A stretch of 45,397 bases of DNA, filler included, from Jimgerdemannia flammicorona (taxonomy: Eukaryota), in NCBI GenBank assembly GCA_003990765.1. It is 2 parts of 2 records of this genome, joined end to end, with 100 filler letters (N's around TTAATTAATTAA, not from the genome) between each part and the next. Parts side by side here need not be neighbours in the genome. Positions count along the whole stretch, not along the records: positions 22,757 to 45,397 come from RBNJ01001235.1; 1 more part is not named here. The stretch is one strand, 5' to 3'. Numbering within the stretch: the stretch's first letter is position 1; each line of letters opens with the position of its first letter. Shown here in pieces: positions 3,001 through 45,373 of this stretch. The notes under the pieces were generated by a model. The model saw nothing but the letters and a program-made list of their open reading frames with translations. It was not told the DNA's origin and searched no databases. Made by a program: the position numbers and the translations under genes.

Positions 3001-3755
3001 AAAGAGGAATTGAGGCACCAATGTCCAGGCCCATCTCTACTTCCCCTGAAGTGTTCCTGTCCCAACAGTCTCCAGTGATCAGACCATAGACACCACTCAA
3101 CCTCCAGCAACTTTCAAACATCTAAGCCACAGCAGTCTGCCATTAGCATCCAGTCAATCCTCATACCCAAACCATTTTCCCAGTGCATATAAACCCTCTA
3201 ATCACCCCAGAACCCCCTACCAGCATCCACCAGAGAACTCAACCTCTCCACTTTCTCCCACATCTCCAACCCCCCACTCCTGCCCTCAGTCTCCCATCTG
3301 CCATCAGTCCTAACCACTAATGCCTCTCAGACCATATTAAAGTCCCCTCCAAGAATGTCCACTCCAGCCCCCATGAGAGTCCTACTCTCCAGGAGTCTCT
3401 TCACCCAATCTACTCTCTCACCATATACAGCAGGGCAGTAGAAGGACTCCACTATAACCAGCTTCCGACCTGGTCAAATCCACTCTCCCCAGACCAGTCT
3501 GTCTCCACAGCTCCTCATATCTTGTATCTCCCCTCTGCCTCTCCATACCAGGATCCCAACCTTACTCTTCCAAACTACTACACCTCCTTATTCTATCATC
3601 CATTTTAGTCTATCCAAGTTGTCTTCACATCTAACATCCTGCAGAAGAAAGAGATCAGCCTCCAGGCTCTTCAACCTAGTAAAAATGTTCTGACATCTAA
3701 CTAAACTCTGCAGCCCATTTACATTCAAAGAAAAAATATTTATTATACTATTCAT
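100..3755 (-). pseudogene. LINE ORF2 remnant: APE endonuclease, reverse transcriptase, C-terminal Cys-rich domain
   Basis: Starts MNSIINIFSLNVNGL (APE N-terminus). Contains WSDH (APE) and GIPQGDPLSPILYALFLE...AFTSDMV (RT, decayed FADD). Many in-frame stops; 3' boundary approximate. Confidence 0.9.
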
Positions 3756-3789
3756 AAGAAATAAGATTAAGAGTCATACTTGCTCTCTA

Positions 3790-5790: not shown

Positions 5791-6949
5791 ATTACTAGTA
5801 TCTTTTCTTCAAAAACTGTGTTGTATATATTGTCAGAAGGTTGTGTAACCTGAATGTTATCAGAGAGAGCAAGTCAAGCCTCTGAGACAGAATGGCTAGG
5901 ATATGGAGATATACTTACTACTACTGAGGATGAAAGTGAAGCAAATTTTCTACAAAAACTAAGAAGTAATTTTGATATTTCGAGAGACTCTAAAAGTAGC
6001 CAAGAAGATCTTTTCATTAGAGTAATCAATACTGAAAGCCTGGAAGACAGCATTGATTGGACTATTAGTAATGAAGTAGTATACAAATTTGCAGAACTAT
6101 CTATATAACCACATCTACCTCTGAAGGAAAACTGAATTATACAAGCCTTCTGCCTATACATATGTGAACACTATAACTGTTTTCACTCACCAAGAGATGA
6201 CTGTAGGAACTGCTGAATTCTTGATCTTAAAAAGGTTTCGATACCAGCAATTGAAGATAAGAATGAGTTAAAATGAGCTCTAGTCCTTATATGAATACAA
6301 CTACCTACCTCTAAAGTTTTTAAGAAAACCTATAAGAAGAATAGGAGATCATCTCTTATCAACCTTTGGAGATCCTCACAATCAAAGGCAATAACAACAG
6401 CACCTATACTATTATCTAAGCTCTCCAGGACACTCTATTTATTTATGACAAATATCAAAAGAAGTACTTAATAAGTAAGAAAATCAAACAGCAGAATGAG
6501 GAATTTATCAAGCAAGAACACTATAATTGTGGAAAGATCTTTACCTGCTATTAGTGTAAGTATTGAAATATCCATCTCAGTGAAGATATCTACAGAGCTG
6601 AGTTAAGAGAAAAAATTCTACCTTATAGGAACCTCAAATTTGCTGGGCCTGTTGAAAATGCAAATAGATCAATCATGAAGAAACCTATAAAGCCAAGAAC
6701 AAGACCTTCATCTGGGATCTGCCATTAGAAATTCTTACTATTATCTATTAGTATTACCAATTATACTAAGGAAAACAAGGAGTTAACCTTCATAGAAGCC
6801 TTAGATCTACTTAGAAGAACTGGATTCAACTATACAAGGAATCCAAAGACTGGAGTACAATAGCCATTCTTTAAGTCAGAATATATGGAGTTCTCTCCTA
6901 TAGTAGCAACTACTGAGACATCATTCCTCAAGACTCAGCCTATTATCTA

Positions 6950-14432: not shown

Positions 14433-16208
14433 AGTAACACTGAATTCTACCAGTATCCTTTTTCTGTGTAACTGTTATTCTTCTGGCATTCTGATCTTGC
14501 AAAACTCAGAAATTCTTCTAGTATCTTTTTTCTGTATTACTGAAATCTACTGGCATTATGAACTTATGCAACAATCTATACAGATACTTGAATTTGTACT
14601 TACAACTATAGTTTTCTGTGTTCCAGTATTTTATTTGTTTTTTGGACTTTATATTTAGCTTTATTACTTAGCTATCATTGAATTATATTTTGTATAAATA
14701 CCACTCTTATTTTCTTTGAAATAAAGTCAGTCAAGTTTACTTACACTCAATTCTATACAAGCAATCTAAGAGATAATAAGATAGTTTAAAAATAAGAAGT
14801 TTGAGGACTATAAGACCTTGGGAAGGCACTCCAATAAGAACTTGCTTATACAAACTTATGGGAGAGGCTCTTAGAAGTTAGAGAGGTCGCCACATCTCAC
14901 TAGCAGACTGGGTGTCGATTCTGAATATCTACTGGTTCCCAAAGCTGTGGTATATTGCTTATCACTTGAACTTCCCAGCTTGGGTGGTGAAGAGGCTAAT
15001 AAAGATGGCTAGGGCTTGGATTTGGACTGGGAGGCAGTCTCAGATCAGTTAGGATACCCTATCATTGCCAGTGGTAAGAGGAGGGCTAGGACTGGTAGAT
15101 CTTTCTAAGAGACTCCACAGCCTGCAAGCTTGGTGGCTGAAGCAGGCCACTGAACTACAGAGAGCAGGATGGAAACCACTAATACAGAAGGTATGAGAGA
15201 TGAGGTTCTCTCCAAGAGGGTCTTTGGAGAACTTGTTATCTTTAGTGGGTTTGGGTGGGAGCCATCAGTTAATATATAAAGGCTTCTGGTGGGGGGTGGT
15301 AGACAGAGCTCACCAGATAGATTTGTGCTGGCATAGTAATGAAGGTGAGATGCTATGAGGTCCAGCAATGTGGAGATGAGACAGACTGCTATTGAGGGGT
15401 ACTCCACTGATTGAGTTTGACATTAGTGATGGAGTAGAGTATTAGAGGGGATTGAATCAGGATATCTGGCCTGTCAGTTGGCAAGCAGTGGAGATTGGTG
15501 AGGAGTGGGACTAGACAGGAGTCAGATCATAGAGTGCTGAGGTAAGGAGGTGGCTTCTTCCCAAGTTCTGGGTAGTATAGTGGAGGATGCTTCAGAGGAT
15601 TGTTATGTTGAATTTCCATGCTGGGCATCTGGTAGATGGGGGATGACTGGACTGTGAGGAGTGTTATAATGTTGGACAAATTGGAGGATTTGTACAGATA
15701 CCAGAACATTGGCTGAGAGAGTGCAAGGTTCTGGGGGACTTTTGGTTAGAAGTAGGTAGGTGATTGGGGGTTAAGAGAAGACCAGATGGGGAGAGAGGTT
15801 GATGGGAAGATTTGAGAGCTAGGTTGGTGGGAGGTGTGGGCAATAACTGGTCCACTATAGTGGATTTTAGCTATATAGATAGGACTGGCTAGACATTGGC
15901 TCTTTGTTTTTGAGGAGGGGTAACAGATGGATCTGTAAGAGAAGTTGTTAAGATGGGAGGGGTTGTTGAGAGATTTATTGACAGGGTGGTGGATGGATTG
16001 GGGCCTACAGAGAGGGGGACCATTACTATCTGGTGGAAGGCATCTGCAAATGGAGTAGTGGATGAGTTGCAATTATTAATGACTTGGTGGTCTTTAATCA
16101 TAATAGAGTGAGGAGAGGTGGACCCCCAAGAGGGATCAGTTAGGGGTGGGTTCAATGTATTTATATCAGATAGATAGGTATATTAATAAAGGATAGAGTG
16201 CAAGAGAC

Positions 16209-16245
<37 letters not shown>

Positions 16246-16349
16246 CCATGTTATCTAAAAAAAAAAAAAAAAAAATACAAACTTATGGTTAGTCTAAGAG
16301 ATGAAGAGAATCTGATATATTTGAAGGACTCAGCAATCACTACATGACA
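14433..16349 (+). repeat. LTR of gypsy element 2, interrupted by LINE copy 3
   Basis: TATAAATACC (~14693) and AATAAA (~14720). 14740-14861 plus 16275-16349 is duplicated at 18366-18462 plus 19722-19831. Ends ...CTACATGACA and is followed by a TGG-type PBS. Confidence 0.75.
14862..16274 (+). mobile_element. 5'-truncated LINE (copy 3) with 14-bp TSD and double poly(A) tail
   Basis: ORF2 C-terminal sequence (VSILNIYWFPKLWYIAY, GGLGLVDL). TSD ATACAAACTTATGG at 14848-14861 and 16275-16288. Confidence 0.93.
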
Positions 16350-16352
16350 ACT

Positions 16353-18365: not shown

Positions 18366-19678
18366 GTACTCACTCAATTCTATATAAGTAATTTAAGTGA
18401 TAATAAGACAGTTTAAAGATAAGAAGTTTGAGAACTATAAGACCTTAAGAAGGCACTCTAATGCTTGGGTGGTGAAGAGGCTGACAAAGGTGGCTAGGGA
18501 ATGGATTTGGGCAGGAAGGAGGTCCCAGATCAGTTGGGATACTCTTGCAACACCAGTGGACAGGGGAGGTCTTGGCCTTGTGGATTTCCCTAAGAGGTTG
18601 CACTGCTTGCAAGCCTGGTGGCTGAAGAGAGCGACTGAACTACAGGGAGGGGATTGGGTGCTTCTGATGCAGAAGGTGTGGGAGATGAGAACCTCCCCCT
18701 GAGGGTCCTCAGGAGATCAGAATTCGGCAGCTGCAATTTAAGGGCTTTTGGTGAGGAGTGGTCAATGGCACACACAAAATTGGTCTGCACTGGTGAGGCA
18801 ATGAGGGAGAGGTATTGTGGGGTCCTCGTATATGGCGATAAGATAGACTGCTTCTGGGGGGTGCTCCACTTATTACTTTTGATATTGGGGATGGAGTGGA
18901 GTGTCAGCAGGGGCTTGGCCAGGACCTTTGGCCGAGTGGGTGGCAGGTAGTCGGGATTGGCAAGGAGTGGGACTGGGCAGGTATCTGGTCTTGGAGTACT
19001 GAGGTATGGCAGTGGCTTCCCCCTAAGTTCTGGGTGTTGTGGTGGCAAATGCTATAGGGGAATGTCATGTTGAATTTCCACACCAGGCATCTGGTTGAGG
19101 GTGGCTGTTTTGACTGTGAGGAGTATTACAATGTAGGGCAGGTTGGAGGTTTGGTGCAGATGCTGGAACATTGGCTGGGGGAGTGTGAGGTTTTGGGGGA
19201 CTTTTGGGTTGAAATAGGGAATAGACTGGGTGTGGAGTGCAGGCCAGTGGGGGAAGGGGACTGCTGGAAGAACTTGAGATCTTGGTTGGTGGGGGGGGTG
19301 GGTGATAGTTGGCTCACTGTCGGGTGGGTGTTAGCAGTTTGAGTGGGTCTGACGGGACATTGGCTATTTGTGTTTGAGGAGGGGCAGCAGATGAGCCTGT
19401 AGGAGAAGGTTGTGAGGTGAGAGGAGCTGTTGGGAGATCTGTTGACTAGATGGTGGATTGGTTGGGGTCCTTCAGGGGGGCAGTGGTGCAGTTTGGTGGT
19501 AAGGATATATGAACAGAGTAGTGGAAGGGTTGGAATTGTATTCAATAGAGTGGTATTTCATCAGGAAGAAATAGAGGGGAGGGGCCCCCTAGGGGAATTG
19601 GATAGGGGTGGGTTCATTGTATTATATGGGATAGATGGATATAATAATGGATAAGTCCAAGTGACTATAAAAATAAAA

Positions 19679-19725
<47 letters not shown>

Positions 19726-19831
19726 GGCACTCTAATAAGAACTTACTTATAACAAACTTATGATTAGTCTAAGAGATACACCTTGAAGAAAATCTGACAT
19801 ATTTGAAGAACTCAGCAATCACTATATGATA
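18366..19831 (+). repeat. Partial second LTR of element 2 (U3 missing), interrupted by LINE copy 4
   Basis: CACTCAATTCTATATAAG...AGAAGGCACTCTAAT / ...CTCAGCAATCACTATATGATA matches the 14740-16349 LTR. Confidence 0.8.
18463..19721 (+). mobile_element. 5'-truncated LINE (copy 4) with 15-bp TSD
   Basis: AWVVKRL...GGLGLVDFPKRL and GCFDC...EHWLGEC. Family 3' end AAGTCCAAGTGACTATA-An. TSD AGAAGGCACTCTAAT at 18448-18462 and 19722-19736. Confidence 0.93.
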
Positions 19832-19969
19832 ATATATAGATTGAGCCAGTATCTCTAATTTCTATAATTAGAATATTGGCTCAAACTCCAGCAGAAATAT
19901 CTGAAGCATTAACAGATATGAGACACAATGTAAATATAACAGTATTTATCTAAAATTCCATTTATATAA

Positions 19970-20690
19970 TGTGATAAGTAAAAATTATCATATAGCTAGA
20001 TGATATATAAAGAGTATTTAATATATATAGTTATCTAATATAGTTATGTATCTATATGTATTACTATTTATATAAATAATTGAATATATTAAATGATAAC
20101 ACTCTATTCTCTAAAGAACCACCTATTTTCCAAAGGAATGAGAAGTTATATATATTTTAAATTAGTCTTACTATATATTCTATAATTACTCAGATAGCAA
20201 TCAGATAGTAATCATACTTGAATAAAATTTTCCTGAGATTTTAGTAAATAAACTATAGTCTGAAATCTAAGTTACATAAAAGTAAAAGATAATTCTATCT
20301 AATATACTTTGAGTAATATATCTAAATACTTAAAAGTAATATCTGCTCTAAACCTACTATTAGACAGAATGTAAGCTTTAATATTTTTTTCAACTCTGGT
20401 CTACTTTTCATATAAAGAATATTTATAACTAAGTTCAAGTAAAGAATATTACCAAAGGGATATTTATTTAGTTTTTTTATAAGATTAAACCTAAGATTAC
20501 TGCTGAGTTCCAAAGATATAACTCTGTATATTTATATAAATTCTAAGATCTATTAATGATAAACTATTGAAGATTTTATTACTTTTTAAAAAAGTAACTG
20601 AGGACTCAAGCTAATTTGCATAGCTCTTCTGTTTTATAATTTATCTCTATTAAGCTAGTAGGTTACATTTAGAAGCTCAACTAAGAAGAC
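19970..20690 (+). repeat. Decayed short-type LTR (19970-20667, TGTGAT...GTTACA) with decayed tRNA-Pro-type PBS
   Basis: 3' end is homologous to the LTR ends at 21257, 24662 and 40844. Followed by TTTAGAAGCTCAACTAAGAAGA, a G>A-decayed TTTGGGGGCTCAACTGGGAAGA. Confidence 0.75.
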
Positions 20691-20949
20691 TTTTAAAATC
20701 TATATAACTTTCAACTTATAGCACTCAATAGATAAATAAGATATTAATATTAATATAAGTATCTTTGATATAGTACAATTTTCTATTACTATAGAAGAAG
20801 AATTTTCAGCAATATTTTGATAGAAAGAGAAGTAATTATCTCCAGACTTATCAACTATCTGTTATCAGAAAGATTATAAAAAGAAAACAGTACTATATAG
20901 AACTCTCAATAATCAGTCTGTTCACTAAGTCTATAAATTGTAAATATAT

Positions 20950-21070
20950 TATAATATACTGACTCAATAGAGACAAATTATAAGATTAGAGCTAATATAT
21001 AAATTAGATTGAGCTCTCAGTAACTTTATCCAAAAATAACAAAATGTTCAACAGTTTCTTTCAGAAATGG
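20950..21070 (-). repeat. Fragment of the same LTR family (U5 terminus)
   Basis: TATAATATACTGACTCAATAGAGACAAATTATAAG...AAATAACAAAATGTTC matches 21257-21360. Confidence 0.7.
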
Positions 21071-21256
21071 ATGCAAGTTTTCCATTTTATATTATATAGG
21101 CAATTTTGGCAATATTTCCTAATTAGGCAGAATTGGCATAATATGGCAGATTCCTAGATCTCTTGAGCAAAACAGATATTCTTAAGTTGATAGATAACTT
21201 GGGTGATGTAGATTCTTCTTAAATCTGCAGACTTCTCAAAAAAATAATATAGATAG

Positions 21257-22539
21257 TGTAACGTGCCCAGCTCAATAGAGGCAAATTATAAGGTTAGGGG
21301 TTGATGTAGTTTGGCTTGAGCCCCCAGTTACTTTGCTAAAAAGCAACAAAATGTTCTATAATTCCAGAAGTCCTTGGTGTTTAGTGGTATAATAGTCAAA
21401 GCTGGATATCTGCAAGTGATTCTGGTGGTTTCCTATTGAGATGGTTCTCTGGATGTAGTAGCGATTTGTGTGTATGTGGTGGATGATCTCTGTGTAGCGT
21501 GATGGGTTTTCTTATGCGAGGCGGTCAGGCAATTTGGTGGTTTCCTTATGCGATTTCTGTGTGACAATCTTTTATGTGGCATGACGATCTTTTTTCTACA
21601 ATCCTGGTGGACTGGCGAATACCTCGATTTGGTGGAAACCTTGATAACTCGGATGGCGGATAACTCAAAAATGGTAGGATACAGATTCTTCCTGAACCGG
21701 CGGACTCTCTGGGAAATAACTCGGATGGTGGATAATTCGGATAACTCGGATAATGCAGATTCTTCCTGAATTGGTGGGTTCTCTGGGAAATAACTCGGAT
21801 GACTTGGATGGCAGGATTTCCTGGAAAGTTATATCAAAGACTGGCTTCGTTTGCATGAGGTTACATCGTAGACGGGCTCCACTGCAAAGTTGCATCAGAT
21901 AGACTGGCTTGTGGCAAGATTCGGGTTCTTCTGGAAATGGCGCTTGGCAAAGTTACATCAAGACTGGCTTCGTTTGCATGAAGTTACATCAAAAGAGACT
22001 GGCTTCACTGCAAAGTTGCATCAAAAGACTAGCTTTGTAGCAAGAGGGACTTCTCAAATTCTTCAGGCTTATCTGGCAAGTGAACCTAAATGTAGTGGAC
22101 TTCTCTTGAAAACAGACTCATTCTTTATATGTATTGGAAAGTGGACTAGAGTGGAAAGTAAGCTCACAAACTCCTAGTAGTGACTTTAGAGTTGTTCTTG
22201 CAGTGTAGTAGGCAGACTTGTCTTTTGCTTTTGAACTTTTCAGACTGAGGTTTATTCACTCTTGTCTCTGGGGTATTTTATACAGATTGGTTACTATCTC
22301 AGTTGCTATCTGAATAATTATAGAATGCACAGCATAGGCTAAATATAGTGTGTAACTTCCTCTATACCCTCAGGGTATAGTACCTTTGAGGTACAGTGCC
22401 TTCAAGATTCAGGTGTCTTGATCTGGATATCTGGTGATATTTATATAATTTCTGTAGCAACTAGGTAACTATAAGAGTAACTATGATATTATAATGATTA
22501 TATGTATTATTCTCTATTATGCTTATATCACTCATCACA
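21257..22539 (-). repeat. 3' LTR (1283 bp) of a minus-strand gypsy element, preceded by a polypurine tract
   Basis: Minus strand reads TTTTAGTGGGGGCTGA (22555-22540), then TGTGATGAG...GTTACA. TATAAATACCCC and GTGAATAAA lie at ~22282-22251. Confidence 0.85.
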
Positions 22540-22656: not shown

Positions 22657-22756
22657 NNNNNNNNNNNNNNNNNNNNNNNNNNNNNNNNNNNNNNNNNNNN
22701 TTAATTAATTAANNNNNNNNNNNNNNNNNNNNNNNNNNNNNNNNNNNNNNNNNNNN
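22657..22756. other. Artificial assembly linker (N44-TTAATTAATTAA-N44)
   Basis: Exactly 100 nt, with a palindromic six-frame stop cassette between two equal N runs. Confidence 0.97.
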
Positions 22757-24600
22757 GTGTGAGTCCATGGAGGAGGCCTACAATGGTTAAGGCATCTGTG
22801 ATTTCCATTGGGAAAGCCTCAGGCCACTTGGTCAGATGTTCTACAAATACAAGGATGTATTTGTTTCTTCTTAGTGGTAATTCATTTGTCTCAGGCACAA
22901 AGGGTGAGGGGGTTCGGGGAGGTGTTTCAGCTTGTTCCTCCTCATGCTCTTCATCTTCTTCTTGAATAATTCTTCTGCTGATGTTCCTGGATGGTCTTCC
23001 CACAAATCTCTTTCTTTTTTCTGCTGGATAGGCTGTCTTTCGGGTGGTAACTTTGGTAGGGTACAAGTCTAGATCGCTGTAGTCTTCACTGTTGCTTGCT
23101 TCCTCGAAATCTTCAACAGGATGAGCTTCAGTCTTCTTGTACTGAGTGTCATTCCTTCGGTTTGGTGGTTCTGAGTCCCTTCGGTCACTTCTTTTGTTGT
23201 CACATTTAGTGGCATAGTGTCCGAATTGTCCACAGTGGAAGCATTGGACTTGGGCTCTGTCTTGGGCAGGGTACCTTCTTTCTTCTTGCTGGTAATTCCT
23301 GTTATCTCTTGATGGATAACCTTGGCTCCTCTGTGGTGGGTATTCTCTGTTGTTTTGGTAGTCCTGATTTTTGCATGTGGTGAGTTTTTCAATCTGCCCA
23401 ACCAATTGGTCTAACTTGGAGCTGAGGTCTTGAATTTCCCTTCTGTCCTTCTTTCCTTCCTTGGCTGGCCTTCTTTCTTCAGACCTTTCTTGTCCTTGAA
23501 GGAGTCCTTGCAGGGCTTTGACCAGGATATCTTCTTTATCTTTCTTCTTGTCATGGTCACTCCAGGTAGTTCCTTGCCTGACATCAAAGAATCCTTGGGC
23601 TGCATCTACTTGCTCTTCAGACCTTCTGATGCCTAGGGTGCGGACATGCTGGGCAATATTCGGAGGAATTCCATTCATGAAGGTCATTGGACCTATGATG
23701 TCTTAGTTGGTGGCATTGAACCTGGCAGAATGCATTCTCTTCTGGATTCTTGTGAAGAAGGCTCTGGGTGATTCTCCAAGATTCATCTTCATTCCCATGA
23801 TAGATTCCTGAGTTTTGTGGTGGGTTTCATTTCCTGCATATTTTTCGATGAGCCAATGGACTATGGCCTCATATTCTAGCTCATCAGAGAATGCTGCTTG
23901 TATCTGTCTTGCCAGTTCCGAATCTGGGTTGTTTGCTGTTCAGTGGAAAATTCCTCTAGCTGGTTCTCTAAGCTGGGCTTTGTAGATGGCAATTTTTCTT
24001 TCATCTGAGAGGTTTCTCAGGGCTGCAATTCCTTCAATTCCATCAAGGAATTCTCTGGGGTCTTCCTCCAGGTATCCTGCAAAGGTTGGCAATGAGGTGG
24101 CCATTTCATCATCACTTTCTTCTAATTCTGGTTCAGGTTCAGGTTCTGATTCTGATTCGCTTTCTGAACTGTCACTAGAGACAGGAGTGCTTGAGTATCT
24201 TGAAGATGGTGTTCTGGTCCTTGGATGAGGTGGAATAGGCCTAGGTATTCTTGTAGGAGCTACTTCTGGTTCTGCAAGAGATTGTGGTAGGGTTCTATTG
24301 GTGAGATTGGTGGGACTGGTGTGGGGTGTCTGGCTGTAAAGTATTGGGTCCGGGTAATAAAGTCTTCTAGTTCTTGTGCAAGTTCTCCAAAATCTCTGGC
24401 AGGGCTGCCTGTATTGTCTGGTTGATCTGGTTGAGGATTTCGGGCTGTACTGCCTCCTGCTTCTGGTTGGGATCCTTCTGATGCTGGGTAGTTGGCAAGT
24501 CTTGAGGTGATTACTTCTCTTCCTGTCCAAATGCTAGTGATGACTGGTTCTCCTGTAGTAGCTGAGGTTGGTGTTGTATCAAATGTATCCAGTTTGACTA
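22757..24600 (-). pseudogene. Gypsy gag (lightly decayed) fused to an integrase-core fragment
   Basis: LPTFAGYLEEDPREFLDGIE (capsid N-terminus), FMNGIPPNIAQHV, CFHCGQFGHYATKC (23243-23202), then in frame NKYILVFVEHLTKWPEAFP (integrase). Confidence 0.88.
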
Positions 24601-29943: not shown

Positions 29944-31999
29944 ATTTTCTAAGATTAAGATTAATTTAATATAAAGAATGTCTTCTATACTTATTGATTT
30001 TAAGATTAAGATGACATCTCAACTAAAGTCCTTTCTCAGATTTGTTCTGAATTTCAGAATTTTCTATATTTTAGGAAGTTCAAGAAACTAAGACCAGCTT
30101 AGTTAAATTGGCATACATATTACTGTAGATAATACCTAACTAGAAAATTTTTAGATCTAGTTAGGAGTAGAATCTAATATAGTATAAGTTTACTTCAGAG
30201 TAATTTGCAGGTTATTAAATAGATTTATTTGCTATTCATAATATTGCTATTGGTTAATACTAAGAGTAGTGTGTGATGGAATATTTAGGTAGAGAAGTAT
30301 TTATCTATTTGTATTTTTATCTATATTTATATCTAAATTTCTAAGGTCTAAGAGAGGGAATATTTATACTAATTGGAGGCTATCTGGATACTCTTTGATG
30401 AGATTACTATTAATGATATTATCTCTGATAAAGTAGTTATCTAGGAATAGTAGTTCTTGAATTACATCTCTCTGTTTATTTATGAAGTAATAGATTGAGA
30501 TAAAATTATCATCCCATAGGATGGTATTATTTATCTTATATGCTAGATATGGTATCAGTGCCTGGGAAGGGGTATATCATCTTTGCTTTTATCAGATTCA
30601 CTGTCAGTATATCTTCAGTAGGTTACAGCACTTTATGTTATAGGGTTGTAGTAAGCTAGTAGTTATTTTTTATATTACTCATACTCAGAAAGGTTATTAG
30701 TTCTATCTCAAGGGTTGTCTGGAGGTACAGATTGTATTCTTCTATTTCTTCATTATAGTTGGAATAGTTAGATATAAATATAGATTGATACTCATACCAG
30801 TGATCATTATCTCAATAGGTCTTATAATAGTTATGAACTATTGTAAGGTATTAGTAAGATTAGTAGAGTGATCAGAGATGGCAGAGATTCTTAACTGAAG
30901 GTCATATCAGTTTCAGAGGGGTTGTTGTCTTCTGCTTTATCATTGTTGAACTGAATTCTATCATAAATATTCTTCATAGTATATCCAACTTAAGACATTT
31001 GTAGAATATAGTCATTGGATATAAAAAGAGCCTGTCTATAATTTGAGTATATTTAATATATTTATAGTTGAGTTTTTGTATCATATTGTCGATTTGGCTA
31101 TAGGTTATCGTAGTAATCATTTTAGCAGTAGTAACTTAGAGGTAGAAAATAAAGATATTATACTTATAGAAGAGTTCTCAGTATTTACAGATAATGAGTT
31201 TCTGATGTTGCAACATTTTAGTAATATCTGTATTATAGCAGTAATTAATCATATCTTCTAGGAGGCAGTCAATCTGATAGTAGCTTGAGATTTGTCTAAT
31301 TTGGTAAACTTTACTAAATATATTCAGGGCATTCCATCAGACTTCTACAAAGTAGAGAGGTAATAAGCTATCAATATTTATAAGAGGCAAGAGCACTGTA
31401 GCTTGGTTAACAATGATATTTCAAATGTCAATATAGATACAGTTGTAGACTTCAGTAGTCATATCTGGATATATGATTGAGAGTTGTGATTATTATTTAG
31501 ATTTATTATAGTTCTCTATTTTAATATACTGGATATTTAGTATATATAATTTCAATCTTGATTAATGAAGTTCTGTTTTCATATATCTTATATTCTATAA
31601 CTTCAAGTTAACTTAGCTTTGTAATCTGTAACTTTAGTTTGACTTAGCTTCATAATCTTATATGTGATTTCCAGATTTGTTCTGAGAGTGATATGTAAAT
31701 TCAATAGCTTAGAGGTTATACATATACTCATACTTCTTATAGAGTATATCCTTTGATAATCATCTTATATTAATCTTCTTTACTGATCTATCTCATTTTT
31801 TTTTTCTTCTTCTAAGTGGTTATCATATGGGCTTCTCTTTGCCTGCTGACATCTTTTTTTTTTTCTTATAGTCACTTGGACTTCGCCATTTATTACCATT
31901 CTATAAAATAAGTTTACAATATCACCTCACACTACCCGATCCCCATGGGGGAACCTCCCCCTGTATCATTATTAACAAAAGTCACCTTCATACCTATCA

Positions 32000-34900
32000 C
32001 TCCCACCCTACCCACACTCTGCCTACAAATCTTCTCTACCAGATGATGCTGTCACCCCCAACCAAGTCACCAGCCTGTCAGGGTATCTTCCACCAGGCTA
32101 TGCCAGTGTAGCAGCTGATCCCCTAGGCTCAATTACCTCCCTCCTTCAAAACAAACAACCAGTGACCTGCCAACCCCACCCAAATTGCCAAAGCAAAACC
32201 TAATATGAGTCACTCCTTTCCCACCCCCCCCCACCAGTCTATCCCTCAAGTCCTCCCACTGGCCTCATATGCCATGTCCCCTATACACTACTCCCAAATG
32301 ATCCCCAATAACCCTCCAAAAGTCACCAAGAATCTCACACTCTCCTAACCAATTTTCAGGCATCTGCACATATCCTCCAACCTGCCCTACATTGTAGTAC
32401 TCCTTACAGTTGAAACAACCCCCCTTGACAAGGTGGCCTGAACAGAAGTTGAGCATGACATTCCTCCTCAACATGTGCCACCAGATCCCCCAGTACTTCA
32501 GTGGCATCCACCTCTGCACCTCAGCACTCTATGCCCAAATGCCATGCCAGTCCCACTCCTCACCAATCCCCACCCCCTGCCATCTGCTAGGCCACAGATC
32601 CTGGCCTGGTCCTCATTGGCAATCTATCTCATCACCAATGTCAAACTTGGTTAAGAGCATGCCTCCCAGCAACACTCGATCCCATCTCTACATTACCAGG
32701 TCCCAAGCCTCATCTCCTTCATTTCCTTGCCAATGAATCTCAATACAGTGTGCCCCCTCTACTATACCCCACCAGAAACCTTTGTAATGCAATTGGGCAA
32801 TGTTCTGAAGCCCAACCAATGATAGGAGATCTCCTGTTGAGCCTCTTGGCAAAGACCTCAACTCCCAAACTTTCTGCAAGAGTGGAACCCATCTGCTCCC
32901 TCTCAGCTCCATTACTCTCTTCATCCACCAAGCTCTCAGACAATATAACCTCTTCAGGAAGTCAACCAGTCCAAGACCTCCTCTTTCCACTGGTAAGGAC
33001 AAGACCTTCCAACCAATCTGACTTCTCCTTCTAGCCCAGATCCACCCTTTGGCCAGCTTCAATAGTCTCTTCACCACCCAGGCTGAGAAGTCCAAATTAT
33101 AAGCCAGGTACCACAACTTCAGTAGCCAATAGACATTCAGAACTGATACATGCCCTGCCAGAGACAAGTAGCAACCTCCCCAGCTCTGCAGGGCCTCCCC
33201 CCAGACTCCTATTTGCTGTTTCCACCAGAGTCTGGGAAGTACTGATCCACCAACTGACAAATAAATGCCCAAGTACCACACTGCCTCACCAGTAGGGATG
33301 ATCTTTCCAATAATGTCTCCCCCTACCAGACCATTACCTAATACCATTGTCTCACACTTATGCCAATTGAGTTTGGCCCCCAAGTTCATCTCATACCACT
33401 CCACAGTTTTCTTTAGCTCTTCAACATCAGTAATAGATCTCAGGCCAACCACTATGTTGTCTGCAAAGGCCCCAACTTTCCACCCAATTCCAAGGATGTT
33501 GAGCCCTTCTATCTTCCTCTGAATTCTGTTCATTAGGAGTTCCAGTGAAAGAGTATACAGAATGAGGGACAGTGGGTCCCCCTGCAGAACACCCCTTCCC
33601 AGGGGAAATGATACCCCTCTATGCTTATTACAAATGAGTGCAGCCCTACTCCCTTCCAATAGGCTGACCATCACCAACCAGAACTGGTGTGGAACTCCAA
33701 TTCTGTCCAATACTTTTGCTAGCCAGACTCGCTGCACCTGGTCATAAGCCTTCTCCTGTTCCAAGAAGACCAGTCTCCCATCCAGTCTACAAGCTCATGT
33801 CTCTTCAATAATGCCATGCACCCAGGCCATGCCATTCCTAATGAGCTGGCCACCTACAAAGTCCCTCTGCTCAACACCCAAAACTTGCTGGGCCACCTTC
33901 TGTAGCCTTGTGACTACCACCTTTGTGACCAATTTTCTGTCCATATCCAGCAGCATGATCAGCTGCCAGTTCTTCCAGTCCTCTCTCCTTTCTTTGTTCT
34001 TGTAAAGCAGTGTCACCAGCCCCAGATCCTGCTCCCCCACCCATCTCCCTGTCTGCAGGATAAAGTCACACAGTGCCATCATCTCACCCAGTACTCCAGG
34101 AACTCCCACCATTTTCTTCCAGAAGTCCCAGGGCAGACCATCTTCCCCAGGTGCAGTACCCAGCATTGTCGCTGCAAGAACCTAACATATCTCTTCTTCT
34201 TGAACTGGCAGCACCAAGTCCTCCAGCCCATCCACTTGTGGGAGATACCAATCCTCCAATGCCTGATCAATGGTATCAGGGTCAGCTCCACCCTCCTCCT
34301 TACTTGACAATCCACTCCACCACTCCTTAAGTGATCTAAGAATGTCTTGTACACTATGTACTAGTATACCCTAGGAGTCAATCACCCCCTCCCATTGTTG
34401 CTGCATCCTTCTTGCCTGAAGGGCCCTTATGAGGTACTTTGAGGACCTCTCCCCTTCCTCCAAACTCTGTCAATAAAGCCATGCTGCTAAGCTCTGTACC
34501 CTGGCCTCCTCCTCTTTCTGCAACACCTGTTGCAATTCTCCAACTTCCATTTTAGCCCTCCTCAACCTCCAGTCCTCACCTTCTACCAATGTTGTAAGGC
34601 CTGCCCAATCCTCTAAGAGTCTAGACAGCCTACCAGTAGCCCATCTTATCCGTCACCTCCTCTACTTCCCCACCTCCTTGCCAACCTCACTCCAGTAGGC
34701 CTTTGCCCTCTCTTTCAACCTCATCCACCAAATATCAATGGGGGCACCTTCTTGTCTCCAGCTTGTCACCCTCAGTTGTATATCTTCAGCCCACTCATTT
34801 CACCAGATTCCATCATCTAATAAAGAGGCATTGAGGTGCTAATGTCCAGGCTCACCCCCACTCCCCCCAAAATGTCCTCATCCTAACAACCCCCAATGAT

Positions 34901-35576
34901 CTGACCATGGACACCATTCCACCTCCAGCAACTTCCAGAAATCCAAGCCCCAGCAGCTAGCTGTCAGAATCCAGTCAATTCTTGTCCCCAGACCCCCTGC
35001 CCAATGTGTGTACACTCTCCTATCTCCTCAGCATTTCCTACCTGCATCTACCAGAGCGCTAAGCCTTTCCACTTCCTCCTATACCACCAGCCCTCCACTC
35101 CTAGTCTCAGCTCCCCAGCCACTATCTGTTCTATCCAACTTCACATCCTGGACCATATTGAAATCTCTACCAAGCATATCCACTCCAGCTTCTGCAAGAA
35201 CCCCACTCTCCTGGAGACCCTGCACCTAATCCACATACTCACCCTGTACAGCAGGACAATAACAGAAACCCACCATAACTGGCTCCCAACCTGTACATAT
35301 CTATTCTCTCCAGACCAGTCTATCTCCCCAGCTCCTCACATCCCATATCTCCCCTCTGCCTTTCCAGACCAGAATTCCCACCTTGTTCTTCCAAACTGCC
35401 TCTCCTCCCCATTCCTTTATCCAATCTAGTCTATCCAAATCATCTTCACACTGGATATCCTGCAATAGGAAGAGATCAGCCTCCAATCTCTTCAGCCAAG
35501 TAAAAATATTCCTATATTGAAAAGTACTCCTCAGCCCATTCACATTCAAAGAAAAAATGTTGGTTGTACTATTCAT
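32000..35576 (-). pseudogene. LINE ORF2 remnant (APE-RT-CCHC)
   Basis: MNSTTNIFSLNVNGLR...LFLLQD, APGEDGLP, EKAYDQV, GVLQGDPLS, AFADN, YLGIYL, GGLGL, CFNC...LGEC. Confidence 0.95.
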
Positions 35577-35601
35577 AGTGAAATATAGTATGTTATCTCA
35601 T

Positions 35602-37619
35602 CTATCCATACTGCTCTATATTCCTCTCTTCCTGCACCAAGTTCAGATTATGTTCCACAGTCACTGCTTCCTCCTCAGCCCTCTGAGCCTCCAATCCAGC
35701 CAACAGCACATTCATCTCCCCATCTGCCTTCTCCTTAAACTCTTCTCAGTACTCCAGGCAGGCCTCCTGCTAGAGCTGTAATCCATGATGCTTGGTCCAG
35801 CAGTATTCAGCCCACTCACCAGCAACTCCTGCCAATTCAGCCTCCTGCTCCTCATCCACCTCATACCCTTCCTCCCCCAAGTATACAGCAAGAATTTCCA
35901 CCTTTAACGCCAACACCACTCCATCCTCCTGCAGGATTCTCGCCCAATGCTCATCACTCATAACTCTCAAGTCCACTTCCCCCAACTCATCAGCCACTAG
36001 GTTATTCATCATCCAACATATCCAAAGTAGATTCCCCACCTCCTTTCCTCCAGGAGTTGCTGGCCTCCCTCCATCCAGGATCATGGTGTCAGCTCTGGCA
36101 CTTGCAGACTCATCCCATACCTCAGGGATATCTACCAGTTCCTCCTCCCTGATTGCTACCCCTTGTCCTCCATCCACCACCTCTGGAACTCCAAATTGAA
36201 CTTGCTGGGCCCCCCACATAGGCACATCCTCCTCCATCCTGCTTCAGGAAGCCGGACCATGTCTGATAAGTGGGGTAGGGGTAGGTGAGGCTTCCCCATC
36301 CTCCTCCCAGACCTCAAACGTGCCATCAGCATAGAGGTCATTGCCCTCCACCTCCCTGTCCTCTCCAGTCTCCTTCTCAGTGCTCCCACCACTCTCGCCT
36401 ACCCAGACACTTGCTTTAGTACCTGCTGTCTCCACCATTCTGCCTGCATTCTTCTGTGGCCACCCCTCCAGCTTTGCCAGCAGTTCCTTCTGTCTCTTGT
36501 GCCCCTGAGCCCTTTCCCACTGCCTCTTGTCTACTTGGATCTGCTTCCCATCCACCACCTCCAGGTGTGTGAACTCTACAAATACCTTCCAAGCCTTCAC
36601 CCTCCACTCCACCATGCCACCCAGCTCTTCCAGCACTTCCAACAAGTCCTCTTCCTCCTCCTCACTCCCTTTCACCCTCATCACCTTGTACAAGATTGCC
36701 CCCCAGACCATTACCAAAGGCCAGTCCCTCACCTTCCTGGTAGCTTCCTTCCCTGCTAGCCAAATCCTCACATCAACATCTCCAGTCTGGAGCAAGGTCC
36801 CTTCCCATACTCTAAAGCTAATGTCCACCATGTTACTATACTCTGTCATAACCTCTTCAACTCTCCTTCTTGTCTCCACTGCTATCACTGTAGGTACCCC
36901 TTTCACAACAGTTGTACCACCCTGGGATCCTACTACAGACTGTGCATTATTGGAACACACATCTCCCCAACTGTTAATCCTATCTTCAGTGCCTCCTCCA
37001 AAGGCTCAGCCTCCTCAAATCCCACCTCCACTCCCTCCAAACCCTTTAGAAACTTTATGGATGCTGCTTCAGTCAGCTGTTTAGTGATAAGACCCAGCAC
37101 CATATTTGCCATCACTGCTAGGCCCCAGAAGCACAGAGTTACCACAAACACCAAGATCGATTTCTTGAGTAGTAGAGCCATCACACCATCTGCTAAATCT
37201 CCTGATCTCCCAAGTCCCTGCTACTCAGCCACACTATCAGCAGTCACATCTGGATTTTTTTCCAGATTGGCAGTCCCATCTCTATCAGCCATTATGCTCC
37301 CCTCAGCCACTACACTCCCAGCTCTACCACCCCCACCACCAAGAGCTACTCCCCCCTATACCACTGTCTTCCCCACCTCCTTGCCTCTCCTCAGCCATCC
37401 CTCCAGCCCAGATGCCTGCTGTCTCCCCTTCACCATCTCTGTGAAGCTCACCCTTCCAGACCCTGGTCCTCTACTACTGCCCCCTCCTCTACTACATCCT
37501 CCTGCCAGCAGCCCCCTCATACCTCCCCCCAGCCCAGGGCCTCGCCCCACCTGCTGCCAGTCAAATACACTTGGGCCACCCTGCCCAGTATACACCTCAG
37601 ATTGCTGGTCAGTCGCCAT
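35602..37619 (-). pseudogene. LINE ORF1 remnant (~670 codons)
   Basis: Starts MATDQQSEVYTGQGG 65 nt after the 5' end and is colinear with ORF1 of copy 1. No CCHC recognised. Confidence 0.8.
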
Positions 37620-37961
37620 GTTGCTAGTTACTTTCTCTAATAAACAATGTTGTAAGTGCTTTTCAAAGATTGTGTAACCTGAATAGTATTGCTTACTGAT
37701 ATCTTCCCCTATCTCAGAAAGTACTCTTTTATTAATATTGATTGAGATTTATATCTTTTGTTCTCAGTAGACAATCTACATATTCTGAGAATTTATATTA
37801 ATTATTGTCTTGGTAATATGAAGCTACTAGTTACTAATAAGAATATTATAGTTAGTAGTATTTGTAATGATCACATTCACTGGAATAGTTACTCTTTCAA
37901 ACTTGATAAAGAAATCTTAAATCTTTCTTAGAGGAATAACTCTTGTACTATCTACAATGTC

Positions 37962-40200: not shown

Positions 40201-40844
40201 TATGATTATGAGTTTTATACAGCTGTGCAATTATACAATCAAGAGATTAAGTAACTATTAAACTATAATATTATACTATATCAGAAATCAGATTCAGATA
40301 CCATGATCAAATATCTATCCCCTGATTGGTATTCCTAATATATATCAGCTATCAAACTATATTTTATAATTATCTAACTAGTAACTAGATAGTAACCATA
40401 CTTATATAAATACCCTAGAGATTTCAATGAATAAACTTCAGTCTGAAATCTAAGTTAAAATAAAAATATAAGTCTATCTATAAAATACTTCAAGAGATAT
40501 ATCTGTTAAAAGTTACTTAATTTAAAGAAAAGAATTGCAATACTCAGGAGAAACATCTGTTCATGAGCTACTATTAAGGAGATTGTGAGCTTACTCTGAA
40601 TTCTACTCTGGTCTACTTTCTAATATAAAGGAGTCTGCTATTTTTGGTCTGCTTACTCAATTAAGCCAGAAGATTTATTACCAAAGTTCTAAGAAAGAGA
40701 ACTCTGCTATTTATTTTTGAAATATTCTGTCTGAGATGAACCATTGATCATTTTGTTATTTTTTGACAAAATAACTGGGGGCTCAAGCCAATTTGCATAG
40801 CTGCCCCACCTTGTAATTTGCCTCTATTGAGCCAGCAGATTACA
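40201..40844 (+). repeat. Probable solo LTR (short type)
   Basis: Ends ...GGGGCTCAAGCCAATTTGC...CAGATTACA and is homologous to 19970-20667. TATAAATACCC and TGAATAAA at 40405-40435. Possible TSD ATCTA/ATATA; left end uncertain. Confidence 0.75.
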
Positions 40845-41196
40845 ATATAAAGAGAAGGTGGGAAAAACATATAGCAATTATAAGCCATGACAGAAGTTAG
40901 TATGAAGAATAAATGCAATATATCTTGAGTGAATACAAATAAATTTTAAAGTCTTATATATAGTGGGTAAAGTGCCGAAATAGGTGACAAGATAGTGTAT
41001 CAAAGTATTATAAGAAATATAATTTGCGCAAGACGAACGCGCACCCAGCGTTTCTGAAGCACCACCTCTGCCGTTTTCCTGTGGGTCTTTACTTTGTTTG
41101 AGCATTCTGTCTTGTTTGTCGGCACCCTTTTCAGTCCCGTCACCGACACCCCTTCAACTTTGCTGTCTTTGTTCATGCGAAATCCGATGTATCCGG

Positions 41197-41266
41197 TTAC
41201 TGCTTGTCGAGCGGTTCACATAGCACGCCGTTCCCCCGAGTCGTTGAGTAGGCAATATTGCAGATA
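41197..41266 (-). CDS. Predicted exon 2 of the deaminase-fold gene (G-ICNIAYSTTRGNGVLCEPLDKQ*)
   Basis: Branch-like TACTAAT (41296-41290). First downstream AG is the CAG at 41269-41267. The phase-2 join completes PPCGIC. Confidence 0.68.
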
Positions 41267-41807
41267 CTGCCATCCAATCCCACAGGTTAATTAGTATTTA
41301 GATCCGCTGTGCTGTCGGCGCCCTATCTCGGCTAAACTATATGCCACACCAATCTCGGCAACGTAACAATGCGGCTTTTGGTTCCAGGGTCATTCATCCC
41401 GCGACGCAACTCGCCATTCGATGCCTGTGTGAGCTATAAAACCGCAACCCAGGTATTGAGTCCCGATTCCGATTATTTTCGTGGCAACAGTATGAATAAG
41501 CCTTTTTGTCAAGATGTTCTTTCAGGTGGTAATAGCATCGATTTACCAAGATAAGTAACCAGGATTTATTTAATTCTCGGGATGAAAAGCGCGGATGGTT
41601 ATGCAAAAAAAATTATATATACATATAGCGAGCAAAGACAACAATAACATCTCGGTCCCTCCACGGCTCATTCATCTCATCATCTTGCACCTCCCGCAAT
41701 GTCATCAACAATCATCAACAATCTCGCCTTCATCATCCCTCCGCCTCTACGCCCTACACCTCCCATTGTCTATTTTAACCCGCATATCACCCAGGATCCA
41801 TCAGTAA

Positions 41808-42011
41808 AGAGGTCGCGGCAGCAGAGAAGTCATGGCAGCGGAGAGGACGCAGCGTAGGGGTCGCGGCAGTGGAGAGATCGCAGCGGAGAGTGGCAGCGGA
41901 GGGTGGCAGCGGAGAGGTTGTAGCAGAGGTGGCATTAGAGGGAAGTCACCGCGGAGAGTTCACAGTGGAGAGGTCGCAGAGGTCATTGAGGAGAGATAGA
42001 GGTCTTAGCAG
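41808..42011. repeat. Degenerate GCAGCGGAGAGGTC-type tandem repeat inside the predicted intron
   Basis: About 12 variable 11-19 nt units. Confidence 0.75.
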
Positions 42012-42157
42012 ATAGCAAAGGGAAGGCTTGTGCGATGGGCCACGTTATCACATTCCAATTTTCAAAAATGAAATATTTTAAGTTTACTTACTGTGATATT
42101 TACGGAAGGGAGTCATAGGGTGGGAATTCGACACCTGGGTTGACTCCCCTTTCCCAC

Positions 42158-42969
42158 CCACAAGGAGGGCAAAACGTTAGAGACTCTACATCGAATGTAA
42201 AGAGCCTCCAGCGTTCGCCCCCCCAATCGTCATTTATATCGGCGAGGGACCTGCCGTTTTTCAGGCCCTCTCCCAGGGCTCGAATAAGTGCGCCCCGTTC
42301 AGCACATTGGCTGACCTTGTGCCAAACGGGCTCTTGCCTCCTCACGCTTTCAAGGTCAACTATCGGCAGAAGAACCTGGTGTCGCCACATCCTGGCTTTC
42401 TGCGCAATACTACTACGTTGGTCATTTCTGGCACGTCCATCACCTTCCTTGTTTTTAATGGTTGTTAAACCAAGGTGTATGATGCCAGATTGATGGATGG
42501 CAATACAAATTTTTGTGGGACAGAGCACCAACTCCTCGGGGTCATTGAGCCGGATCCATTGCTTCAGCATAAGGACCCAGTCTCTCGCCCTTTTTATGGT
42601 GGGCTTCACATCATCGTCAGCCAAAAATAGTTTACCCTCCTCCCTCCATTGAGCTTCGAGGGCCCACAGCCCAATCTCGAAGGGAGTTGGGAGACTTTGC
42701 GCATTGGCAAGGTAAAATGCCAATGGCATTTTGGTGCTGACGGCGAAGAGGAGTTGGTGCGAAAGTCCCGCGATATTTTTGATTGTACCCATCGGATCAT
42801 CGGAATCAATAAAATTGATCCTCACCCTTGGAGAGATTGGGATGCTAGATTCGACATTCGTCTTAACCAACATCTTTTTCCCTTCATGACCATCTTCGTC
42901 ATCGTCGTAGCGCTTTCTCTTACCATGAGAAGCCAGGGAAGTGGTGGAAAGCGGAGGAGTCAGTGACAT
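42158..42969 (-). CDS. Exon 1 of a putative zinc-dependent nucleic-acid/cytidine deaminase-fold protein
   Basis: Stop-free, CpG-rich ORF. MSLTPPLS...GKRKRYDDDEDGHEGKK; HKVSQCAERGALIRALGEG; LTFCPPCG. Donor GG|GTGGGA at 42158|42157. The start codon is inferred; upstream in-frame ATGs exist up to 43179. Confidence 0.78.
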
Positions 42970-44382
42970 TTGTATGGGCTTGAGATTTGTGAGGTGGGAG
43001 AGGGTGTGTGGTTGTTTGATTTGTCTTGAGCACGGGAGATATTCCAGTAATGTGTGGGAAGCCGACGTACGACAGTAGTAATCGTGAATCGGTTGTTGGG
43101 TTGTTGTAGTGATCTCGGTATTCATGATGACGTCATCACACACGAAAAAAAAAAAATTGCTGATCTCAATTTCTATCATTGATTAAAACGACTGACAATT
43201 TCTACTAGGTAAGATTTTGGCTTGGCAGGTAGTCTTGAATGATAAAGACTAGGCAGAATGACTATGATTAGGCAGAATGATGACAGTGACTAAGCAGGAT
43301 GTAATGTATCTGGCCTCCAAGACCTTACGTCTACGTCTGTATTTCGATTAATGAAAATTTACGCGGTCGCCTACTGAAAAAATTGTATCTATCGTGACAC
43401 TTTTGCTTGAGTGAAGCATCGCAAGGCAACTTGTTTGTTCTGCTTTGTGGTCATCATTCTGCAATCAGTTAAATCGACGGTTCATTCTGCTTAATGGCTT
43501 AGTCGCCGTCGTTCTCCTTATTCGACGTCATTCTGCTTAATCGTCGGCATTTTGCAAATTATTCTTGAAATCCTCTGGCGGAATAAATCTGTTTTGGAAC
43601 TTCTGTAATTCGCAACAATGTGCTGATTATTCTTAAGAATCGAGGGATGCGATGGCCTGCCAATTGGTAACTGACAAAGGTTTTCCTAGTAGCTTCAGGG
43701 TTCTCGGAGGCGCTGATGGCATGTTTGACACCACGGATAAAAATTTGGTCTCTTGAAGCGACTGGCTCCATCGACGAGACCCCGATCAACAAATTAGACG
43801 CCTAAGCAGAATGACAGTAAAGTTCGAGACACCAACATAGCACAACAGTCGAAGTCATGGTTTATTCGGTAGAGAACCTATCTAAAAACCACTCATCTGT
43901 AAAAAAATATCTGTCTCTACCAATACACCTATATAATCTAAACCATTTACATCTCCTCAGTATAAATTATTGCTATCTTAAATAGTATATTTATATTTAC
44001 TGATATATAATACAAAGATAAAACTATTATTAAATTTATATAAATTAAAATAATTTTACTTATAATGATTGATATATTAATAATTTTTCAATCTCTATGC
44101 CTTACACTACATACCCACCAACTAACCACCAACTCAACCAACCAACCAACATCTAACCAACCGACAACCACAAACCACCAACAAACTAACTAACCATAAC
44201 ATACCGCAATGTTCGCTATTGTCTTGTGCTTTCCGTTCACGTTGTTTCTGTTTACTTGCTAAATTATGTTCCTGTTTGCGCTTTAAACTTCGGCGTGATT
44301 GACAACGACGAAGGGACGACGTGCTGACAACAACAAAGTCGATGGTGAATAATCGACGGGACTGATGATGGTGGTGGATGCA

Positions 44383-45022
44383 CGATAATGAGCCGACGGA
44401 AAGACGAGACGACGCGATGACGGAACGGCAACGGCAATACAGATAATAGAAGAACAATGACCGGCAGCAATGAACGACCGGCAGCAAAGGATGATCCTGG
44501 AACGGACGATGGTGAATGATCGACTGAAAGACGGTGGTGAATGATCGACTGAAAGACGGTGGTGGATGATCATAATGAGACGACGGCACGACGGGACGAC
44601 ATTGGCGAAAGCGATAATGGTAGAAAAACGACCGACAGTGATAAACAACGGCTGGCAGCAATAAACAACTACCGGCAATAAAGGATGACTAACGGAACAG
44701 ATGTTGGTGGTTAATCGATAATGAGACGACAGAACGGAATGACGGAAAGTGAAACGATAGCACGACGAGCATCGACCGGCGGCAATGAACAACGACTGGT
44801 AGAAAAGGGTGATCAATGGAACGGACGATGGTAGATGACCGATAACGAGAAGACGGGACAGATGATGGTGGCAACGGAGATACTCTGTTGGTGTAGTTAC
44901 CAATATTAAGCCGAACGAGGGAATGTGCGATGGACGACGACGAGATGAACGATGTACGGCGATGAGACGATGTACGACGACGAGATGAACGATGTACGGC
45001 GATGAGACGATGTACAACGACG
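44383..45022. repeat. CpG-rich degenerate minisatellite
   Basis: ~140-190 nt units starting (G/C)ATAATGAG(A/C)CGAC at 44383, 44571 and 44718, plus a partial unit at ~44841. Exact 25-bp duplication at 44511-44560 and 40-bp duplication at 44941-45020. Confidence 0.8.
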
Positions 45023-45373
45023 GGACAGTAGGCGTTAGCGATGCAAGAATAAAGTGATGATAATGTGTGGAATGTTGTATGCGTGTAAAAGTGACAATAT
45101 GTTCTGATTGCTGTATATAATGGTGTAGTTCCCTATATTCAGCAATATGGAATTGGTTGTGTGTGTGTATGTGGTCCGTAGTAATGCGTGAGATACGGTG
45201 CGATAAGTGGTAATGCCATGCGATATGTGGTAATGCTGTGCGATAGATGGTAATGCCGTGCAAGGCTGACAACCGTCAGCCGTTTGTCAACAATGGAACA
45301 CGTGACGTCGGCTAAGCCTTGGGAAGTGGGAATTGACCGTTTTGGGAATACGGGAGGCGCGCACAGCTTCTCG

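Follow-up and report, generated by a model that had tools for sequence, protein, structure and literature searches.

In this work we have investigated a stretch of 45,397 nucleotides (nt) from the fungus Jimgerdemannia flammicorona (assembly GCA_003990765.1), made up of parts of two records joined end to end and called the window throughout, and within it a locus on the minus strand which an initial annotation had taken for the spliced gene of a zinc-dependent, possibly nuclear deaminase. We read this locus, most likely, as one uninterrupted gene, 42100..42969(-), possibly with a start further upstream. Its product, here called P0001, may contain a genuine and very divergent deaminase-fold domain of the YwqJ/cytidine deaminase (CDA) kind, also known as the 'C-terminal hairpin' kind, and we put the probability of this reading at roughly 0.45.

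The reading frame and its candidate zinc site

The minus strand holds an open reading frame (ORF) of 359 codons counted from its first ATG, 42100..43179(-), or 360 codons when counted from stop to stop. P0001 is the same frame counted from the ATG at 42969, that is, a single-exon coding sequence of 289 codons followed by the stop codon TAA at 42100-42102. The frame stays open upstream to 43182 and contains further in-frame ATGs at 43179, 43125, 42873 and 42729, so that the start at 42969 is provisional. With a stop probability of 0.050 per codon, taken from the local base composition, 360 open codons have a probability of (0.95)^360, about 9e-9 per start, and by calculation the two strands of the whole window together should hold about 8e-4 such frames; this one is therefore not a product of chance. 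A second copy of the gene was sought within the window and none was found.

Two short strings in this frame, QCAERGALIRALGEG and FCPPCG, are present as the initial annotation had reported them. The first contains CAE, residues 222-224 (42298..42306, minus strand), in which C222 is a candidate zinc ligand and E224 a candidate catalytic glutamate; it heads a predicted helix at 222-234 which the low-confidence models render as amphipathic. The second holds CPPC, residues 267-270 (42160..42171, minus strand). This is a full CxxC and would provide the second and third zinc ligands. It comes after predicted strands at 254-260 and 265-267, lying six residues past the former in the same low-confidence models, and is followed by 19 residues and the TAA. 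C222 and the CxxC are 45 residues apart. The last zinc ligand had been thought to be lacking from the ORF, but this was an error of register which arose because PCxxC was expected and the cysteine pair of CPPC was overlooked.

Is a second exon then needed at all? The splice that had been put forward to restore the zinc site would remove an intron of 891 nt (41267..42157, minus strand) and join PPCG to an exon of 22 codons plus stop (41197..41266, minus strand), which would supply the last cysteine of a PCxxC. The strings behind this proposal are all in place: GG followed by GTGGGA with the intron starting at 42157, TACTAAT, GGCAG just ahead of the first exon base at 41266, and a stop at 41197-41199. 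The boundaries are GT...AG, the branch-like TACTAAT lies about 23 nt before the acceptor and the phase is correct. However, the first exon already holds a CxxC, and splicing would cost the protein its C-terminal tail, residues 271-289 (42103..42159, minus strand), which is kept in homologues (P0002, RUS31371.1; P0003, RUP44478.1; P0004, RUS28013.1; P0005, RUP44295.1; none of them annotated for function). Thirteen of the 19 tail residues are identical in P0002, which also shares the stop position of P0001, and P0004 agrees in part, with 7 of 15 residues identical across motif and tail over FCPPCGWERGVNPGV; G271, E273, V276 and G279 are invariant in a three-sequence alignment (A3). The proposed second exon has no match in P0002-P0005, and among the frames downstream of the ORF none resembles the missing elements of a deaminase.

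The splice signals themselves are ordinary. Among 500 shuffles of the 2058 nt downstream, 97% contained an AG acceptor giving an in-phase cysteine (mean 3.4, with two observed in the real sequence), and in 15% there was an acceptor accompanied, in addition, by a CTRAY branch motif and by 15 or more open codons. The donor GTGGGA matches the fungal consensus GTRNGT weakly, for fungi of this kind an intron of nearly 900 nt would be long, and domains of the YwqJ type end just past the CxxC anyway. Because the tail is conserved, the second exon is unmatched and the signals recur in shuffled DNA, the splice is unsupported; a two-exon gene strikes us as far-fetched, and we read the supposed intron as 3' flank or intergenic DNA.

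Two further observations were made in this part of the locus. A perfect GTAAGT donor-like hexamer lies at 42086-42091(-), 9 nt past the stop, and could belong to an intron in the 3' untranslated region or be meaningless. At 41801-41933, inside the proposed intron or 3' flank, there is a family of five imperfect copies of a 28-nt repeat (GCAGCGGAGAG-like) with irregular spacing of 14-43 nt; this stretch shows a periodicity of 14-17 nt.

Outside the motif region two parts of P0001 stand out. Residues 17-32 (42874..42921, minus strand) form a basic-acidic-basic patch (KRKR, an acidic run, KK), as had been noted before. By eye it resembles a nuclear localization signal, and a nuclear location of the protein may be considered. 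Residues 81-195 (42385..42729, minus strand) are the best-conserved part of the family, with predicted helices at 96-110 and 121-138 and a predicted beta hairpin at 153-170.

Resemblance to YwqJ-type and cytidine deaminases

Iyer et al. 2011 (PMC3239186) describe the YwqJ-like clade as deaminases of bacterial polymorphic toxins with a few basidiomycete members; the [CH]xE motif lies in helix 2 with the signature Gx[CH]xE, an insert separates strand 3 from the CxxC, and the domain is often truncated after helix 3 or strand 4. As far as can be judged from its sequence, P0001 fits these peculiarities, the glycine of the signature apart. Like members of the clade, it has, in low-confidence models, an insert between strand 3 and the CxxC that follows, and its C-terminal elements are cut short; a further insert may lie ahead of helix 2. 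This putative insert, about 50 residues running from the predicted hairpin 153-170 to the helix 222-234 in the same models, contains H197 and H217, which are candidates for a counterpart of the clade's histidine. Both AlphaFold runs, each of low confidence, broadly agree on an order of elements that begins with a helix, the two strands of the hairpin and an insert helix and goes on with the CAE helix, a strand and the CxxC. In the second run, made with residues 120-289, short elements are added within the insert.

For comparison, 401 sampled Pseudomonadota genomes were searched with PF14431, the YwqJ-deaminase family (curated cut-off 25.9 bits), which gave three at E<=0.001 and one over the cut-off. 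The genuine examples are PF14431 matches of 78.8 and 57 bits from one genome, joined by 51 relatives of the first. The spacing from H-A-E to CxxC in the fetched examples is 44, 46 and 50 residues, compared with 45 in P0001. These toxins have ACxNC rather than PCxxC, where P0001 has CPPC, and their PF14431 match ends 5-8 residues past the CxxC (L085, L088), whereas 19 residues follow C270 in P0001. Since the YwqJ toxins use ACxNC and have short tails, neither the missing P-C register of P0001 nor its short tail calls for an extra exon. In other respects P0001 differs from these toxins: it is eukaryotic (Mucoromycota-type), it has a conserved N-terminal region of about 120 residues together with the basic patch, and its locus has neither a toxin-delivery module nor an adjacent immunity gene.

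If the fold is genuine, the deaminase domain would occupy the C-terminal 150-170 residues or so of P0001. Helix 1 would lie at about 121-138, followed by the beta hairpin at 153-170 and an insert of about 50 residues. C222-A-E224 would then open helix 2, strand 3 would span 254-260, and a short insert would separate it from C267-x-x-C270 and the 19-residue tail. One zinc would be held by Cys222, Cys267 and Cys270 and would activate a water molecule, while Glu224 would shuttle a proton for the hydrolytic deamination of a cytosine-type (or other) base. A zinc-activated water and a glutamate acting as proton shuttle are established features of the CDA-fold deaminases, whose fold has three alpha/beta/alpha layers and brings both motifs together at one zinc. 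The putative core would thus begin near residue 120, at the predicted helix 121-138, and the N-terminal extension of about 220 residues ascribed to the protein earlier was overstated.

Cytidine deaminases offer a second comparison. When residues 174-289 were searched with phmmer against 177,635 PDB sequences, only two matches were returned, 1mq0 (human) and 1zab (mouse), and both are cytidine deaminases; full-length P0001 gave none. The helix CAER...A...A..EG aligns over about 31 residues, but the alignment is non-significant (E 1.4, 12 bits) and does not reach the second motif. Cytidine deaminases carry PCxxC about 30-35 residues after [CH]AE. In P0001, by contrast, the CPPC lies 45 residues downstream, after an extra insert and not in the PC-register, and P0001 is twice as long as the PDB chains, which have 140-146 residues. 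The only two matches of the A3 profile in PDB, to ROR-gamma (E 0.085) and to a protein with DUF4200 (E 9.6), were taken as noise.

Language-model comparisons with the ESM Atlas add to this picture. Among its named clusters, the best for residues 140-289 scored 0.90 with 179 of 256 shared features, 11% of its members carrying PF14431, and the second scored 0.89 with 169 shared features and was YwqJ-like in 100% of its 226 members. An MsddA-like cluster (0.87), Toxin-deaminase (0.76) and OTT_1508_deam (0.76) were also found, and one family or clan accounted for nine of the ten best family-bearing matches. The whole of P0001 gave a weaker result, with YwqJ at rank 10 (0.82). The MsddA-like proteins (PF24174) are small, toxin-type DNA cytosine deaminases; the family is carried by 13% of the members of the look-alike cluster, and for P0001 this likeness has no counterpart in evidence at the sequence level. 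According to the main text of a toxin deaminase screen (bioRxiv 10.1101/2023.06.29.547047), five families account for nearly all of the DNA activity, and YwqJ is not named there (0 occurrences).

What would it mean if P0001 were a deaminase? The range of the toxin-type YwqJ-like deaminases, so far bacteria and mushrooms, would then take in the Endogonales, an early-diverging mycorrhizal group, where the domain would stand in a new architecture; and P0001, unrecognised by Pfam, NCBIfam and PADLOC, could be put to the test as a mutator or editing enzyme of eukaryotes. If it were not, the locus would be a cautionary case in which an intron was invented on the strength of a short, catalytic-looking motif within an ORF specific to one lineage. 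Our literature search found no paper that names both Jimgerdemannia and a deaminase, and among the papers listed since 2015 on YwqJ-like deaminases in eukaryotes none was about fungi.

Homologues and rival explanations

When 1.84 billion cluster representatives were searched exhaustively with HMMER, four homologues emerged, P0002-P0005, all of them hypothetical proteins of J. flammicorona, and a word-indexed search over 5.8 billion gave two of the same four. Relatives were also sought by pattern and tblastn in prokaryote genomes, JGI metagenomes and IMG/VR viral contigs, where 19, 121 and 32 pattern stretches, respectively, yielded none that was confirmed. On these grounds the family appears to be small and lineage-restricted, so far to Endogonales-type fungi. 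The closest relation is to P0002 (E 9e-62, 116 of 217 residues identical), whose alignment spans residues 81-289 and which has its stop at the same position. P0003 is 72% identical over 113 residues (81-193) and much less so beyond, while the N-terminal region is partly kept in P0005 (11 of 22 residues). The C-terminus of P0005 resembles the N-terminal region of P0001 (42808-42873) and its N-terminus resembles residues 86-162 (42484-42714), which suggests that the gene model either has joined tandem copies together or misrepresents the locus.

A number of results weigh against a deaminase domain in P0001, and they begin with its own family. The homologues share its N-terminal half and its C-terminal tail but not the CAE and CxxC, neither of which is kept in any of those that cover them (P0002, P0003 and P0004). 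P0002 has TQAR in place of CPPC; P0004 has TPPY and is without about 49 residues around the CAE; P0005 does not cover the catalytic region. The stretch with the CAE helix (42254..42400, minus strand) is moreover read differently in P0002 and P0003, whose residues 111-159 are colinear with it in another frame. In a six-frame comparison of ungapped 49-residue windows, the best of about 90,498 windows for residues 111-159 of P0002 started at 42400(-); 14 of its 49 residues are identical, and its BLOSUM62 sum is 32 (runner-up 11). Read in that frame, the DNA of the window has three stops, and after the CAE stretch P0002 and P0003 return to the frame shared with P0001. Because the frame differs between the two lineages and the stretch is missing in P0004, it seems to be poorly constrained.

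Could CAE and CPPC then be there by chance? P0001 would in that case be the product of an orphan Endogonales gene with a function other than deamination, its functional half would be residues 81-195, and the two motifs would have arisen in a fast-evolving middle and C-terminal region. We regard this as a serious possibility, to be given rather less than an even chance. It accounts for the loss of the motif residues in every homologue that covers them, for the shift of frame and the gap in P0004, and for the fall in identity after residue 193; the lack of a profile signal in any library or custom profile also speaks for it, as does the PDB match, whose E of 1.4 is the chance level for a database search. 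Against it stand the five deaminase-clan clusters among the language-model look-alikes, the best with its 179 shared features, and the way in which spacing, inserts and truncation all point to a single, specific clade. Moreover, over the CAE stretch the frame of the window reads as a folded amphipathic helix, whereas the alternative J. flammicorona frame is basic and of low complexity. P0002 and P0003, which represent the same locus in two isolates, differ by an additional frameshift near their residue 158, and this suggests that those copies are decaying and are not the reference state. Taken together, the frameshifts of P0002 and P0003 suggest, at the level of sequence, that the J. flammicorona copies are decaying or that the middle of the protein is unconstrained.

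To these adverse points must be added the outcome of the homology searches. The stretch S-Q-C-A-E in P0001, whose C-x-E heads the predicted helix 222-234, has a serine where the YwqJ signature has glycine, two residues before [CH]xE. Unlike the YwqJ clade, P0001 matches no HMM (hidden Markov model) or other profile, and the members of its own family do not share its putative catalytic residues. Neither P0001 nor its C-terminal 146 residues matched any family of Pfam, NCBIfam or PADLOC at E<=10; accordingly, with hmmscan against Pfam-A the cut-off of PF14431 was not reached, and PF00383 (dCMP_cyt_deam_1) gave no match. Nothing meaningful was found in Pfam for P0002-P0005. With hhalign the probability was 0.07% and 0.12% against an E. 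coli-type Cdd alignment (A2), which is narrow (16 of 120 listed sequences, all at least 80% identical), and 0.10% against a gammaproteobacterial YwqJ subfamily alignment built from the 51 relatives and the C-terminus of L088, with rows of more than 90 domain residues. An unfiltered hmmsearch with the gammaproteobacterial YwqJ HMM gave P0001 -2.7 bits, no better than shuffles: of 2000 shuffles 952 scored, and 533 of these 952 at least equalled P0001.

The structural and language-model results have limits of the same kind. ESM Atlas scores below 0.9 are leads only, by the Atlas's own warning, and the unrelated Urocanase_N (0.88) stands among its top rows. The mean predicted local distance difference test (pLDDT) score of the AlphaFold2 models was 36.5 with a 5-sequence alignment and 39.7 with the single sequence of residues 120-289. 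Foldseek searches of PDB with the latter model returned 420 rows at E<=10 and none at E<=0.001, and there was no deaminase among the matches listed, a result which the pLDDT of 39.7 makes meaningless. There is also a selection bias, in that the motif drew the eye of the initial annotation among very many windows. As the same motif selected the locus, the PDB match is not independent evidence, and the same is probably true of part of the language-model signal. The original guess of a CAE-type, YwqJ-like superfamily member therefore fares unevenly. It is still the best single reading and has gained new leads in the language-model look-alikes, in a spacing and C-terminal truncation like those of the YwqJ toxins and in the clade description of Iyer 2011, but every statistical test of homology failed.

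Between the divergent deaminase and the chance motifs lies a third explanation, which we consider unlikely: a deaminase-type, toxin-derived family may be in the course of being lost, the window copy being a relic with intact ORF and motifs that is non-working or unexpressed. Frameshifts, ligand loss and deletions among the homologues would agree with this, as would the position of the gene between AT-rich repeat DNA and low-complexity DNA, and the tail after the CxxC, which is rich in glycine and proline and is predicted to be non-helical in the low-confidence models. A frame of 289-360 codons that is still open does not favour decay, however, and nor does the fact that the paralogues have kept both the tail and the N-terminal half as protein sequence.

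A more specific version of the deaminase reading is bolder and, in our judgement, decidedly improbable. P0001 would be an Endogonales-restricted, toxin-derived, YwqJ-like nucleic-acid deaminase which has acquired an N-terminal domain of eukaryotic type and a patch for nuclear targeting. In J. flammicorona the family would otherwise be frameshifted or have lost its zinc ligands, and only the copy in the window would still be catalytically intact. The family would then show a birth-and-death pattern, as expected of a gene engaged in genome conflict and acting, for example, on retroelements, endobacterial DNA or non-self nuclei.

Flanking DNA and repeats of the window

The gene sits in an island of 49% GC at 41-43 kb. 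On one side the adjoining DNA is AT-rich (38-41 kb, GC 26-29%) and on the other there is a stop-poor, low-complexity tract at 44.1-45.3 kb. The initial annotation had placed the gene at the edge of a transposon block eroded by C>T changes. The AT-rich flank is there, but an origin by repeat-induced point mutation (RIP) is rejected because the RIP-type index (CpA+TpG)/(ApC+GpT) is 1.09-1.56 and so, by the threshold in general use, not depressed.

The large repeats of the window are two 5.8-kb copies, 1-5855 and 31861-37684, with 69.8% identity. On the minus strand the second has an ORF matching RVT_1 (E 7.6e-15) downstream of a weak match to Exo_endo_phos (E 0.0012, below the cut-off), and on the strength of these two matches the repeat is, as read from its sequence, a degenerate LINE-like (long interspersed nuclear element) element. 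Transitions make up 69% of the differences between the copies (C<->T 812, G<->A 394, transversions 541), and by calculation their rate per available site is similar in the two classes, 24% and 21%. It is proximity alone that ties these repeats to the gene. Further LINE-like fragments lie in the opposite orientation at 14878-16350 and 18463-19832. On the plus strand the LINE-like copies contain 35-36% C and 12-14% G, a GC skew of about -0.5; their sense strand is thus G-rich and C-poor, without a matching excess of T.

Three other parts of the window deserve mention. At 44134-45300(-) there are three overlapping stop-poor frames of 147-330 codons, of low complexity, with direct repeats of 25-40 nt and no Pfam match; they are probably not genes. 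An open frame of 333 codons at 22701-23702(-) matches the zf-CCHC zinc knuckle (E 0.0006, just under the Pfam cut-off) and probably derives, as a gag-like remnant, from another retroelement. Finally, the AT-rich flank downstream of the gene (40358-40849) shares repeats of 90-150 nt, at 75-82% identity, with 20174-22326, and these are likely to be fragments of dispersed repeats.

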